Positions 20,028 through 44,408 of a DNA stretch of 64,000 bases are shown piece after piece. This stretch comes from Eledone cirrhosa (taxonomy: Eukaryota), in assembly GCA_964016885.1 (NCBI GenBank), contig OZ024744.1, positions 60,078,001-60,142,000 of the forward strand. Reading direction: 5' to 3'. How positions within the stretch are numbered: position 1 is the first letter of the stretch; the number at the start of each line of letters is the position of its first letter. The notes beneath the pieces were generated by a model that ran no database searches, was not told the DNA's origin, and was given only the letters and a program-made list of their open reading frames with translations. The position numbers were made by a program, and so were the translations under genes.

Positions 20028-20877
20028 TAAAAACAAATGACGAAACGAAATTAAATTTCGTTTCGTTTGTAACTCACTTTTGTATGACTGACGCTTAAAC
20101 AATTAAGTTAAAAATGTACATCCACATATGTATACTGAAATACTAGTATGCATATGAATACACACACGTATACATATGTAGATGTACCAAGTTTTTCACT
20201 GGTCACTTTACTGTGAGTGTCCAGCTATTCTGTATGTAAACACACAGACAAACCGGTTTTTAGAGTCATACTGGTTTTTGAGGAAACACCTTTCCTCTAT
20301 TCTCCAGAAAGCCAGACAAGGAATATTGAACTAGTTTCGTTGTTGTTACAACTCATCAGCAATATTTACCTATCTTCCGACCTTTCTGGAGAATCGTAAA
20401 AGCACATATCGTTATATGCTTTTTCTATGAAAATTAGTAGTGGGCAGACTAATTTGCATAGAGCGTGAGTACGTACCGGTTCAACGGAGACGATAAAATC
20501 AAATAACGAAACGAAATTAAATTTCGTTTCGTTTGTAACTCACTTTTGTATGACTGACGCTTAAACAATTAAGTTAAAAATGTACATCCACATATGTATA
20601 CTGAAATACTAGTATGCATATGAATACACACACGTATACATATCTGGCTTTCTGGAGAATAGAGGAAAGGTGTTTCCTAAAAAACCAGTATGACTCTAAA
20701 AACCGGTTTGTCTGTGTGTTTACATACAGAATAGCTGGACACTCACAGTAAAGTGACCAGTGAAAAACTTGGTACATCTACATATGTATACGTGTGTGTA
20801 TTCATATGCATACTAGTATTTCAGTATACATATGTGGATGTACATTTTTAACTTAATTGTTTAAGCGTCAGTCATAA
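20028..20877 (-). mobile_element. HHR-bearing non-coding element, family A (466 bp unit, partial tandem plus inverted segment)
   Basis: 20041-20175 repeats at 20507-20643; 20645-20877 is an inverted copy of ~20082-20316. Ends at hairpin CGAAACGAAATTAAATTTCGTTTCG followed by (TA)n. Confidence 0.85.
20322..20366 (-). ncRNA. Type I hammerhead ribozyme, intact core
   Basis: Minus strand: AATATTG-CTGATGA-GTTG taacaa CAAC-GAA-ACTAGT-T/CAATATT. 7-bp stem I, 4-bp stem II, palindromic stem III, GUU site. Confidence 0.9.
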
Positions 20878-21044
20878 CTTTAATCAGTTAAACTTTAATC
20901 TGTTATTTTAATAAATATTTGCTCTACGGTTCTTATATATTTGATATATATTTTCCTTATCGAGCCCTCTTTGGATTTTAGTCTTCAATTTTATTATTAT
21001 TACTATATATATATATATATATATATATATATACATACATGCTG

Positions 21045-22340
21045 TGACAATCCTAACGCCAACATTTAGCCTGCTGAACTGGTCATTGTAAGAACTAAGT
21101 GAGATGGATGTTAGAACTCGCAAACTTCTCAGTGTTACTGGAAACTTTAACATCAATGGTGATGTGGATAGGCTATACTTCTCACGCAAGGAAGGTGGCC
21201 GGGGTCTAAAATCCATATTAACAACATATGAGACCCGGATAATAACACTGAAGCAACATCTTCAACAGAAGAAAAAGGTCAGCAACCACTTGCCAAGGTT
21301 TATGAGCACGAAGGAAATAATATCATTAGCATAGCCACTGATCTGGAGGAGAGATATGGAATAAGGCTTGATATAAATCTCTCTCCCAGCGAAATTGGAA
21401 GATTCTATTCAATGTTCGAACAAGATAAAAAAAAAATGGACCAATTTACAGAGAAAGTGAGATGAAAAACATAGACCATAGAGGGGATAAATCATTAAAA
21501 AAACCTGGCATGGAGTTCTAACAAGTTTATGACATCCCCCCTTGAAGGATATCTCTATGCAATACAAGAACAAGAACTCCCTACCAAATATCTGCTACAC
21601 AAAAGAGGAGGGCCATCAGTTGACAATAAATGTAGGCTTTGTAAAACAAAGATCAAAGATGTTAGCCTCATTGTTGCCAACTGTGAAAGCATGTCATCTC
21701 GTTACTACCTCCCCATGAGACACAATGGGATAGCTAGAACCATCTGGAACGCACTTAGGAAAACAAAATTAACAACAAACGAGGAAGAATATATTGAGAC
21801 AGATGGCACTAAGGAATACTGGTGGAACCTGAAAATAAAAACTGCCACCAAATTAAAGCACAACCGGCCTGATATTGTTGTTTGGGACCACACATTGAAA
21901 ACATGCTCTGTTGTAGAGATCAGCTGCCCACTTGATGTCAACGTAAGAAAGATACAAGAGAAGGAGGACATCTGCGGACCATTGATGAGGAGTTTGCAGA
22001 TCCAGTATCCAAGATACACCTTCAGCTTCATACCCATCATTATTGGAGCTACGGGTTATATACCAACCTGCTTGGACCAAAGTATATCTGAACTTGGATT
22101 TGTGAACAAAGAACGCAGCTCCCTAAATCATAGACTACAAATGGCTGCGATAGCTGGCACCTTCAAAATTTGCAAAACATTCTTGCGATTCAAGGGATGA
22201 CAATTTCTTTTCTTTTACAACCTTGCCACCAGGAAGGTGGTTGGTCAAAAATGTACTCGAAATTAAGAGAAAGGGAAACATACATAATGGCTGCCCCCTC
22301 GTTATCGAGTATGGCCATTGCACAATATACCATTAATAAT
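21045..22340 (+). mobile_element. R4/Dong-like LINE, third family, 5'-truncated and decayed
   Basis: DRLYFSRKEGGRGL, AIQEQ, CRLC, RHN, HNRPDIVVWD, VEISCP, PIIIGATG; short TAA tail. Confidence 0.85.
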
Positions 22341-23159
22341 AATTATTAATTAATTCTATCGTGCAATGCCTGTGCGTGAAGATATTTTTTAAAGTGAGAA
22401 AAGACTGTGCACTGAGCCAATCCCACTCTCTGAGCGACAGTAGCTATAACTCGAAAAGAAGAAAAGATCAACATCATTGGTAACTACTGAGCCGCAGGTT
22501 TTATATCGGAGTTATCCCAGTTTCCTGAGTTGCCTTCTCCTAGAAGAATGCTCTGACATACATACATACATACATGGTGGCTGCAAACTCTGCTAATAGT
22601 TGTGCAATCGCTTGTCAGATTATAGAGTTTGGTACACTTTTAGGCTACGGCCAGTCACACGAACCTCTGATGGTTTTTTTTAGGTGGGGAAAGGCCTTGC
22701 ACTTGCTCAATCCCACTCTCTGAGTATCGAAAACACTACACGAAAAGGAGAATTGATCAACATCATCGGCCCGACCATTAGAGGGGTTGTACTGGGTTAC
22801 ATGTTACCAGTAGCACTCGAGAGTGACCTGACATACACACACACACACACATACATACATACATACATACATACATACATACATACATACATACATACAT
22901 ACATACATACATACATACATACGAAGTTTTCGTCTACCAAATTTCATTCCCTAGACTATAGTAGAAGACAGTTGCTCGAGGAGCTGCACAGTGGGACCTA
23001 ACCCACTCCTACATACTTGTGTAGCGCAAATCTTAACCACTCAGCTATGTATGCTGTTGTTTTTTTCTTAAAGGTAGGCGGGATTTAAAGTTTAAGATTC
23101 TTTAGCCTAGCATTTATGGTGAATTTAGAAGTTATATTTTTGTATCGTTCATCGCTGTG

Positions 23160-23475
23160 TCGGCGTGTGGTCTAGCAGTTAGGAATGTTCGTCTCACGAT
23201 CTTAAGGTCGTGAATCCGAAGCCCGGTTCGAGTGATACGTTGTGTTCTTGAACACTTTATTTCGCTTTGTTTCGCTTCAATCAACTCAGTTGGAAAAAAT
23301 GAGTTGTACCAATAATTTGAAGGACCAACCTCGTCACATTCTGTGTCACATTCTGTGTCACGTTGAATCTCCCCGTGGAATATTCAGCCACTTGCACGTT
23401 AATTCCACGAGCAGGCTGTTAGTAAATGGCATCAACTGGAACACTCGTCGTTGTAACCGACGGAGTGCCAGTATG
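23160..23475 (+). mobile_element. tRNA-derived SINE, second family (related copy at 52880-53100 on minus)
   Basis: Head GGCGTGTGGTCTAGCAGTTAGG..GGTCGTGAATCCGAAGCCC, then central GTTGTGTTCTTGAAC..CACTTTATTTC. Confidence 0.65.
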
Positions 23476-23591
23476 TAATGTGTGTATGGTGTGTATATGG
23501 TATATAATATAGTGTATAAATCAGTTGCGATGACACTGGTACCAAGTTGTATCAGTCTTTACCTTTCACTTGAACAACATCATATAATGTA

Positions 23592-42322: not shown

Positions 42323-43101
42323 AAAAAGGTGACGTGTTTGCCTTAACACCGTGCGGCATAAATTCAGGCTGTTCAGTTTGTTTACGAACGAACAAAGCGG
42401 GCGCTAAAATAAGCGTCCGCTAAACTGATGCGTACATATATGTATGTGTACCTGTATGTATATATATATATATATATATATATATATATATATATATATA
42501 TATATATGTATGTGCATGCTACTGTACGTCTGTATACATATATGTATGTACGTATACATACATACTTACATTTAAGTAAGTGCCGTACTAAGAGTGAGAA
42601 ATGAAATTTCGTTTTCATTATCTTACAACTCATCGTTTTCGGTGCGCCTGACCGATGTAACTCACTCGATATGCAAATTAGGCTGCTCAGCCGTTAATTT
42701 TCATAAGGAAAGTATATACTTTCGAACGTTCAACTATCTGGCAGATGGGTATACGGTGCTGATGATAGCTAACAAGCTTGAAACTAGTACATCGTTCCTG
42801 TGTCAGTGTTGAACAAAAAGGTGACGTGGTTGCCTTAACACCGTGCGGCATAAATTCAGGCTGTTCAGTTTGTTTACAAACGAAAAAGGCGGGCGCTATA
42901 ATAAGCGTCCGCTAAACTGATGCGTACATATATGTATGTGTACCTGTATGTATATATATATATATATATATATATATATATATGTGCATGCTACTGTACG
43001 TCTGTATACATATATGTATGTACGTATACATACATACTTACATTTAAGTAAGTGCCGTACTAAGAGTGAGAAATGAAATTTTGTTTTCATTTTATTACAA
43101 C
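42323..43101 (+). mobile_element. Family B element, ~1.6 tandem units (492 bp period), HHR at 42753-42795
   Basis: 42328 repeats at 42820. HHR reads ACGGTG-CTGATGA-tAGCT aaca AGCTt-GAA-ACTAGT-A/CATCGT. Ends GAAATGAAATTTTGTTTTC then (TA)n. Confidence 0.87.
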
Positions 43102-43165
43102 TATATATATATATATATATATATATATATATATATATATATATATATATATATATATATATATA

Positions 43166-43862
43166 TTGTCCTAATAACTTTTTTTAGCTATTGTCGCACC
43201 AACGTGAGGTATATGATTTTTAATGCGATGAAATACCAATGATCGTTGGCAAATCACTGATGAGGGACTCATTTTATAACATGTAATCCATGTGAAACTA
43301 TGCAGTATTCTTCTCCCCATATTTTTCATATAATTACCTAAACTGCGATTCTGTGTTTCTCTCTTTCTCTCTTACTGCTCCCTCGTTCTCTCTGTTTCTC
43401 TTACTTTCTTTCGTCCCCTCTGTCATGTCAGTTAACACTTTCTCTCTACTGACCTCTTCCTCGCACTTCCACTCACTCACTCTCTGTTTCTCCCCTTCTC
43501 ACTTCCCACCGTCCGCTACGAACCCGATTTTCCTTCTTTCTTACATCGGATTCACTAGCGGAAGGTCTGTTTCTTACTCGCACATGTATTCACCCAGCTT
43601 ATACTGACAGAATAACCATGTTGCTTGTGTTTCTTTCTATCTTCGGTTAGCTTTCCCCTGTGTTGTTTACTTGTCTCACTCGCTTTACGCGTTTCAATTG
43701 TCCTAATAACTTATTTTAGTTATTGTCGCACCAACGTGAGGTATATGATTTTTAATGCGATGAAATACCAATGATCGTTGGCAAATCACTGATGAGGGAC
43801 TCATTTTATAACATGTAATCCATGTGCAACCATGCAGTATTCTTCTCCCCATATTTTTCATA
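43166..43862 (+). repeat. Partial tandem unit (532 bp period; 165 bp direct repeats) with degenerate HHR-like core
   Basis: 43166-43331 repeats at 43698-43863; CTGATGA-GGGA..TCCATGT-GAAAC at 43258 and 43789. Confidence 0.7.
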
Positions 43863-43869
43863 TATATAA

Positions 43870-44408
43870 GTATGTACACGTACATACATATATGTATACA
43901 GCCGTACAGTAGTATGTATATATATATATACAAACATGCACACACATATATATCTACGTATCAATTCACCGAACATTTATTATAATGCTCGGTGTGTTTG
44001 TAAACAAACACCCCGTATTAAGCCGTAGTGTCCAGCAACCATCGTTGCTCGTTTGTTCAACACTGACAAAGGAACGCTGTACTAGTTTCAAACTTATTAG
44101 CTATCGTCAGCAACGTATACCTTCCTGCCAGATTGTTGAACGTATATACTTACCTTATGCATATTAACGGTTGAGTAGCCCAAACACTACGGCTTAATAC
44201 GGGATGTTTGTTTACAAATACACCGAGCATTATAATAAATGTTCGGTGAATCGATACGTACATATATATGTGTGTGCATGTATGTATATATATATACATA
44301 CTACTGTACGTCTGTATACATATATGTATGTTCGTGTACATACTTATATTTAAGTAACAGCCGCACTAAGAGTGGGAAATGAAATTTCGTTTCATTTTTT
44401 TCCGTTTA
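43870..44408. mobile_element. Family B element with inversion; HHR at 44074-44116 (-)
   Basis: 43870-44182 is minus-sense and 44183-44408 plus-sense; ends GAAATGAAATTTCGTTTC then (TA)n. Confidence 0.82.

Follow-up and report, generated by a model that had tools for sequence, protein, structure and literature searches.

What drives the transcription and the spread of short, non-coding repeats that carry hammerhead ribozymes? The question arises from a 64,000-nucleotide stretch of the Eledone cirrhosa genome (GenBank assembly GCA_964016885.1, contig OZ024744.1, positions 60,078,001 to 60,142,000, forward strand; hereafter the window, from whose first letter positions are counted), in which three families of such repeats, A, B and C, present an octamer, a TATA-like box and a type I hammerhead ribozyme in the same order. 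An earlier note on this DNA had described them as a candidate new system, with a promoter of its own in each unit and mobilisation by the proteins of Penelope-like elements (PLEs). We propose that they are non-autonomous metazoan retrozymes with a promoter of the host's small nuclear RNA (snRNA) gene type inside each repeat, which would be used by RNA polymerase II (Pol II); to this reading as a whole we assign a probability of roughly 0.58. Membership in the retrozyme class is very strongly indicated, and 'new system' was an overstatement, because the units fit the metazoan retrozymes without long terminal repeats (non-LTR retrozymes) as presented in the accessible part of Cervera and de la Pena 2020 (PMC7229834). 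The novelty, judged from sequence, is retrozymes whose internal promoter matches host snRNA genes, the class itself being known already.

Units, families and ribozymes

As in retrozymes, the units are short tandem repeats, from dimers to multimers, with one type I hammerhead per unit (in C by inspection only, stem II being atypical). They contain no gene-like open reading frame (ORF), only low-complexity frames of 141 aa (B1) and 127 aa (C), and show no LTR structure, although primer-binding sites and polypurine tracts were not searched for. The unit length of 466 bp proposed for A holds (period 466 in 29 of 48 intervals, range 465-471), and the 492 bp proposed for B is the period of the copy B2, B as a whole ranging over 428-522 bp owing to a TA tract inside the unit. 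For C, the proposed 467 bp results from deletions in the window copy, the real unit being about 542 bp among copies. Partial tandems, inversions and (TA)n ends were all seen as described, together with head-to-tail arrays of pure monomers, one of which comprises 31 units and one inverted unit; C and J (a family introduced below) were observed as partial tandems only. The window holds 12 octamers (ATGCAAAT) where 4.85 are expected, and seven matches to the hammerhead core pattern, outside which C falls, against 0.37 expected.

The 3.0-Gb genome was scanned with several patterns, each with a control count. A/B-type hammerhead cores number 40,658 (control 23), and 29,395 of them have the exact octamer 72-102 nt upstream (control 0), 28% lacking it at that distance. 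A relaxed octamer-plus-core pattern gave 2,737 matches (control 5), families E, F and G among them; a further pattern of this kind gave 259, mostly C (control 1), and a pattern with the spacing of U6 genes gave 69 (control 0), of which about 50 belong to J, an old family whose ribozyme is of type I. Four further families, E, F, G and J, carry the cassette. Family J (L326-L334) has the exact U6 octamer-TATA spacing of 47, the sequence GGTATATA and a unit of about 350 bp, and family F (L134, L146) carries an octamer-plus-YCAG module (Y, pyrimidine) three times at a spacing of about 34 nt; AAAAACAGA, which resembles the 3' box of snRNA genes, was also noted in F. Two diverged copies (L122, L128) have an octamer, a core, a longer spacer of 104-107 nt and a weak stem I, and are possibly related to C. 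Among 34 hammerhead-like clusters in the fetched loci, the octamer is absent within 200 nt of the 23 that lie outside A, B, C and E. In another hammerhead family (L074, minus strand, core at 912; L071; L110), which lacks the octamer, the ribozyme is preceded by CCAAT and TATAAATA.

The earlier note had treated A and B as separate families; their cassettes are homologous, being 78% identical over the 59 bp from octamer to TATA, and both ribozymes have a 2-bp palindromic stem III, so that the two do not count as independent. It had also stated that stem I is unlike between families yet pairs in each, and this is borne out: across eight ribozymes (A, three of B, E, F, G and J; C was left out of the alignment) stems I and III covary, with 90% of the cells paired and 14 double-sided changes, a level reached by 0 of 500 shuffles and compared with 28-41% in slid controls, although the shuffle result is not a probability because the eight rows are related. 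In Rfam, only the ribozyme of A scored (HH9, 37.7 bits, E 6e-6), below the gathering score of 52. Single-sequence minimum-energy folds were not significant (z from +0.1 to -2.0), and one of the seven stretches folded missed the ribozyme. Rfam microRNA matches, which were hairpin or TA-repeat matches below their gathering scores, were rejected.

A promoter cassette that resembles two classes of host promoters

In the host, the octamer lies at -76 to -79 in six of six type-3 promoters of RNA polymerase III (Pol III), namely those of three distinct U6 genes, RNase MRP, U6atac and the selenocysteine tRNA (tRNA-Sec), with the motif TATG(C/G)(A/T)AAT(T/G)AG and a TATA box 46-48 nt downstream. This tally leaves out 14 U6 loci (L164, L201-L213) and seven of eight U6atac loci that are apparent promoterless retrocopies; in the C19 tandem U6 array (L153-L163), a 192-bp insertion has pushed the octamer to -270 in 6 of the 11 loci fetched. 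Host U1 (14 loci), U2 (nine distinct upstream sequences) and U5 (seven loci) have no octamer there and share a layout of AATTA near -90, YCAGT at -56 to -58 and TATA near -30, the YCAGT, which TCAAT replaces in two U2 loci, standing 26-27 nt before the TATA. Since both the Pol II class (U1, U2, U5) and the Pol III class have a TATA near -30, this box is not diagnostic, and sequence and spacing must decide the polymerase. RNase P has TCAGTG at -66 and no octamer, U4 has only an approximate YCAG, and the signal recognition particle RNA and U3 have neither octamer nor YCAG-type motif; RNase P, the signal recognition particle RNA and U3 yield no hybrid template. The U3 promoters (L300-L303) carry a (T/C/A)ACGTCA motif and a TATA box, without octamer or YCAGT.

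The elements appear to combine the octamer of the host type-3 promoters with the geometry of YCAG, TATA and start found in U1, U2 and U5. The octamer was found at all four sites where the earlier note had placed it (Table 1), with TATA-like sites at octamer +41 to +43 and cores at +100 (A), +88 (B1 and B2) and +104 (C), as claimed; the B copy at 43.9-44.4 kb, which had been counted among the carriers of the cassette, has a core with no octamer before it. The context TATGCAAATNAG is common to the elements and all six host type-3 promoters, the exceptions being C, with GATGCAAATAAC, and B3-type copies, with TGG after the octamer. Families B, E, F, G and J have a YCAG upstream of the TATA, at 26-27 nt; A has CCACT, with one mismatch, and C has none and carries CACGTG in its place. 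We take the octamer to be a POU/Oct site and CACGTG to be an E-box. Octamer and TATA, the spacing of which had been suggested as a check, are 40-43 nt apart in six families (A, B, C, E, F, G) and 47 in J, compared with 46-48 in host Pol III genes; among the YCAG-bearing families the distance of the octamer differs (42 vs 47). The host Pol II layout with AATTA at -90 and no octamer was not found in the elements, which carry the octamer instead. In an alignment anchored at YCAG, the C|A of the U1 start is matched by C|AG in the elements, which would place the starts of B1, B2 and A (Table 1) 16-28 nt before the core. One promoter alignment, in which E and C had slipped out of register, was set aside in favour of the other comparisons. 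No host gene with the octamer-plus-YCAG hybrid was found with the strict pattern, all 44 of its 44 rows being element variants by inspection.

Conservation of the motifs against their surroundings, the lack of which the earlier note had named as a refutation, speaks for our reading. In public contigs covering B2 (42640-42760; four runs, contig type unspecified, uninformative on starts or strand), 23 of 121 positions vary but none of the 19 in the three motifs (p ~0.02, a hand estimate), whereas the A directly after the octamer does vary. The search of public data for the B unit listed no RNA source.

We consider it probable that the cassette is a functional promoter, and the suggestion of a promoter just upstream of the ribozyme has strong sequence support, with the modification that a host snRNA-gene promoter describes the cassette better than a generic octamer-TATA arrangement. 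In C, the octamer and the core described earlier are present; the TATA is weak and variable among copies (GTATATT, GTTTATT, GTCTATT, GTGTATT). The probable common ancestry of B, E, F, G and A, by which most families would go back to one ancestor and their agreement is not independent, weighs against our reading. Together with this drift and the 28% of A/B cores without the exact octamer at the set distance, it would fit a cassette that is only a relic of descent, or a binding site that drives no transcription, with host read-through as the source of the RNAs. We regard that alternative as improbable, as motifs and spacing are kept while the intervening sequence diverges, the motifs are invariant among B variants, the cassette matches two independent classes of host promoters, and F carries its module three times.

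Which polymerase

Pol II is the more probable user of the promoter, by about two to one over Pol III. Copies that extend across T5-T7 tracts favour Pol II; each A unit has two T5, C has T6-T7 in the middle of the unit, and J has a T6, which the partial tandem of locus L333 crosses. An upstream promoter is copied only if transcription traverses the whole unit. The sequence and spacing of the proximal sequence element (PSE) and the A at the implied start also speak for Pol II. The same retrozymes might instead use the cassette as a U6-type (type 3) Pol III promoter, with transcripts ending mostly at T-tracts and rare read-through supplying the promoter-containing templates, and a series of observations that speak against Pol II would fit this. 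The octamer, with its TATGCAAATNAG context, is a hallmark of the host Pol III genes, and none of the Pol II snRNA promoters examined has it; in place of YCAG, A has only CCACT, and C has none; runs of four or more T are absent from the implied start to octamer +345 in A and, in B, up to a point some 60 nt short of the unit end, as in Pol III templates, and many insertions stop just past T-tracts; J has the U6 spacing, GGTATATA, a G at the implied start and a T6 right behind the ribozyme; and four of the five G copies printed have T4-T9 near octamer +190. In vertebrates, moreover, the TATA selects Pol III, whereas in insects small PSE differences determine the polymerase and TATA is universal in U6 genes (accessible part of PMC1761439).

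We nevertheless judge the use of Pol III unlikely, since the spacing of 40-43 in six families departs from the 46-48 of host Pol III genes, YCAG at TATA-26 matches only Pol II snRNA genes, the TATA is present in host U1, U2 and U5 too, copies span the T-tracts of C and A, and the terminal T-tracts of B double as the 3' arm of an A/T hairpin. The asymmetry of T-runs in the body (A, no T4+ vs three A4+; B, 0 vs 0-1) is not decisive. It is conceivable, and we mention it as a rather doubtful scenario, that the lineage captured a host U6-type Pol III promoter, of which the old family J would preserve the exact spacing, and later changed polymerase through a shortening of the octamer-TATA distance, around a U1/U2-type PSE, by half a helical turn. 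The change would have brought read-through of T-tracts, copying of the upstream promoter and more than 40,000 copies. If this were true, the genome would hold tens of thousands of mobile promoters dependent on SNAPc and POU factors and making circular RNAs.

3' ends and mobilisation by Penelope-like elements

The ends of A were surveyed in 17 distinct A loci of 30, and the following counts refer to the matches listed. All 21 readable 3' ends fall at monomer positions 393-399 (n = 12) or 464-466 (n = 9); the second site is also the query end, but 7 of its 9 ends directly abut (TA)n. The cleavage site (165) coincides with none of the 21. The 5' ends are scattered, and in six of seven inverted A pairs both kinds of 3' end are represented. 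For C, microsatellite positions suggest that ends likewise gather at two distances, which differ by about 100 nt. In PLEs, the tail arises from two internal starts of reverse transcription (PMC11167929, accessible part), and copies show inversions and a bias towards microsatellites (PMC8557442, accessible part). The two-site 3' ends of A match this Penelope 'tail' signature, and PLE proteins are very probably the helper; the mobilisation by PLEs put forward earlier thus gains strong support from the ends. The second A arm of the window itself, which ends at 411 and so at neither preferred site, does not fit.

Since copies cross the cleavage site, the template was a circle or an uncut multimer, which the data do not separate; we lean slightly towards a circle. 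Against this stands one PLE in which uncut RNA is the main substrate (PMC11167929, accessible part), so that circles are not required. Promoter and ends together suggest the following course. SNAPc, TBP and a POU factor would recruit Pol II, and transcription would pass the T-tracts into the next unit, whereby the promoter is copied. The hammerheads, those of A and B probably as dimers, may excise monomers that circularise. PLE proteins would nick (TA)n DNA, and reverse transcription would start inside the unit, at one of two fixed sites of an RNA that is either circular or an uncut multimer, leaving partial tandems, arrays and inversions.

The PLE ORFs of the window (RVT_1, E 2e-4, below the cut-off; GIY-YIG, E 1e-4) end in (TA)n. 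The pseudo-LTRs (pLTRs) of these coding PLEs lack the octamer and are unrelated to the units, which are therefore not the pLTRs of the window's PLEs. That the units might be solo or tandem pLTRs of 5'-truncated coding PLEs could be argued from their PLE-type structure (partial tandems, inversions, tails) and from PLE ORF fragments that adjoin some copies (44514-45416 after B3; L230). We consider this very improbable: there are pure head-to-tail monomer arrays, one of them of 31 units (no genome-wide search for ORF-linked copies was made), many insertions are enclosed by (TA)n tracts that leave no space for an ORF, and the adjacent PLE fragment lies beyond a microsatellite, its own pLTR being unrelated to the units. 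The possibility that the units are ordinary pLTRs always attached to a coding PLE, which the earlier note had named as fatal to its proposal, does not agree with such arrays and (TA)n-bounded copies.

The pLTRs of the coding PLEs (55146-55155, 59289-59298, 45555-45566) have AAAATGGCG or AAGATGGCG, presumably YY1-like motifs, upstream of hammerhead-like motifs, and a common end motif, ATGACC(C/T)TCCC. Many U6 and U6atac copies (the 14 U6 loci above and L216-L222) are promoterless, and several adjoin (TA)n tracts or the ends of hammerhead elements, which suggests retrotransposition with PLE machinery.

Features of the window

Table 1. Retrozyme copies, their promoter and ribozyme features, and the coding PLE in the window (strand ".", both orientations).
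Feature	Position	Strand	Remarks
Family A monomer, 466 bp	20028..20493	-	partial second copy extends to 20643
Inverted arm of A insertion	20643..20876	+	
A octamer	20452..20459	-	context TATGCAAATTAG, as in host U6, MRP and tRNA-Sec promoters
A PSE-like site, CCACT	20439..20443	-	one mismatch vs host YCAGT
A TATA-like box	20411..20418	-	predicted start 20387 (C|AG)
A type I hammerhead	20322..20366	-	cleavage predicted after 20329
Family B insertion B1	24915..25725	.	inverted, forward and inverted arms; flanking (TA)n tracts
B1 promoter cassette	25142..25189	+	octamer 25142, TCAGC 25158, TATATA 25184; predicted start 25214
B1 hammerhead	25224..25266	+	cleavage predicted after 25260
Inverted B1 arm	25576..25724	-	three tandem octamers, cassette, hammerhead 25576-25618
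Family C insertion	39345..40235	.	forward copy with deletions and inverted arm; true unit ~542 bp
C cassette	39880..39926	+	octamer, CACGTG 39890, weak TATA 39921; YCAG absent at TATA-26
C hammerhead-like motif	39976..40051	+	stem I 8 bp, stem III 5 bp, stem II atypical; cleavage predicted after 40043
Family B partial tandem B2	42322..43102	+	period 492 bp
B2 cassette	42671..42718	+	octamer 42671, TCAGC 42687, TATATA 42713; predicted start 42743
B2 hammerhead	42753..42795	+	cleavage predicted after 42789
B3 insertion with inversion	43860..44403	.	hammerhead 44074-44116 (-); octamer lost at inversion junction
Coding PLE ORF (reverse transcriptase)	55895..59053	+	C-terminal part similar to GIY-YIG ORF 44514-45416; candidate helper class only

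The window also holds a 26-bp minisatellite of 104 copies (33721-36429) and, from inspection of translations only, a two-ORF long interspersed element (5585-10702), a broken LTR-retrotransposon-like remnant (49149-52967) and a mariner-like transposase fragment (29255-29704).

Implications

Animal retrozymes are reported to be strongly transcribed in all tissues tested (PMC7229834, accessible part), and their promoter is unexplained apart from the case of the newt. Comparison of the promoter with the snRNA genes of the host itself allows predictions at the level of single bases for start sites, polymerase and factors, and if the newt and this invertebrate both use a housekeeping, snRNA-type promoter, the strategy would seem to be a recurrent one. 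That PLEs act as helpers is supported by the two-site 3' ends. The work also defines how U6 and U1 promoters of the host are laid out, which may be useful for the expression of guide RNAs.

Comparison with known systems

The non-LTR retrozymes of Metazoa, which include newt satellite 2, share with our units the short, low-GC tandem repeats without ORFs, the single type I hammerhead per unit and the range from dimers to long multimers, and there too PLEs are proposed as helpers (PMC7229834, accessible part). Differences are the unit size (428-542 bp here, about 150-450 bp there), the internal promoter, which is described here and is not described in the accessible part of PMC7229834, and the two-site 3' ends and inversions, which add sequence evidence for a PLE helper. 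In the literature, we found no account of these families or of the hybrid promoter (subscription papers, repeat libraries and supplements lay outside the search).

The promoter of newt satellite 2 reportedly consists of an octamer and a PSE, a finding that is said to go back to Coats and colleagues in 1994. Newt satellite 2 is likewise a repeat with a hammerhead, and the promoter inside it is of the snRNA type and used by Pol II (PMC2220036, accessible part), whereas Pol II is inferred here; the promoter architecture, which had been thought undescribed for retrozymes, therefore has a precedent. Unlike satellite 2, our elements have a TATA box and an octamer at the position typical of host Pol III genes, and the cassette is common to several diverged families, in two spacings. 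Other hammerhead elements with promoters of their own are the plant LTR retrozyme NbRZ1 (PMC12029980, accessible part), but with an LTR promoter and a type III hammerhead, and the schistosome satellite (PMC2220036, accessible part), but with an internal Pol III promoter.

The pLTRs of PLEs have in common with our units a hammerhead with palindromic stem III, a promoter in the repeat, partial tandem or inverted insertions, microsatellite targets and two starts of reverse transcription (accessible parts of PMC4209133, PMC8557442 and PMC11167929); unlike PLEs, the units have no ORF, and their tail is 65-100 nt compared with 30-40 nt. Finally, the cassette resembles promoters of the host's own genes, the type-3 Pol III promoters in the octamer context and, in B, E, F, G and J, the Pol II snRNA promoters in the geometry of YCAG, 26 nt, TATA and start.

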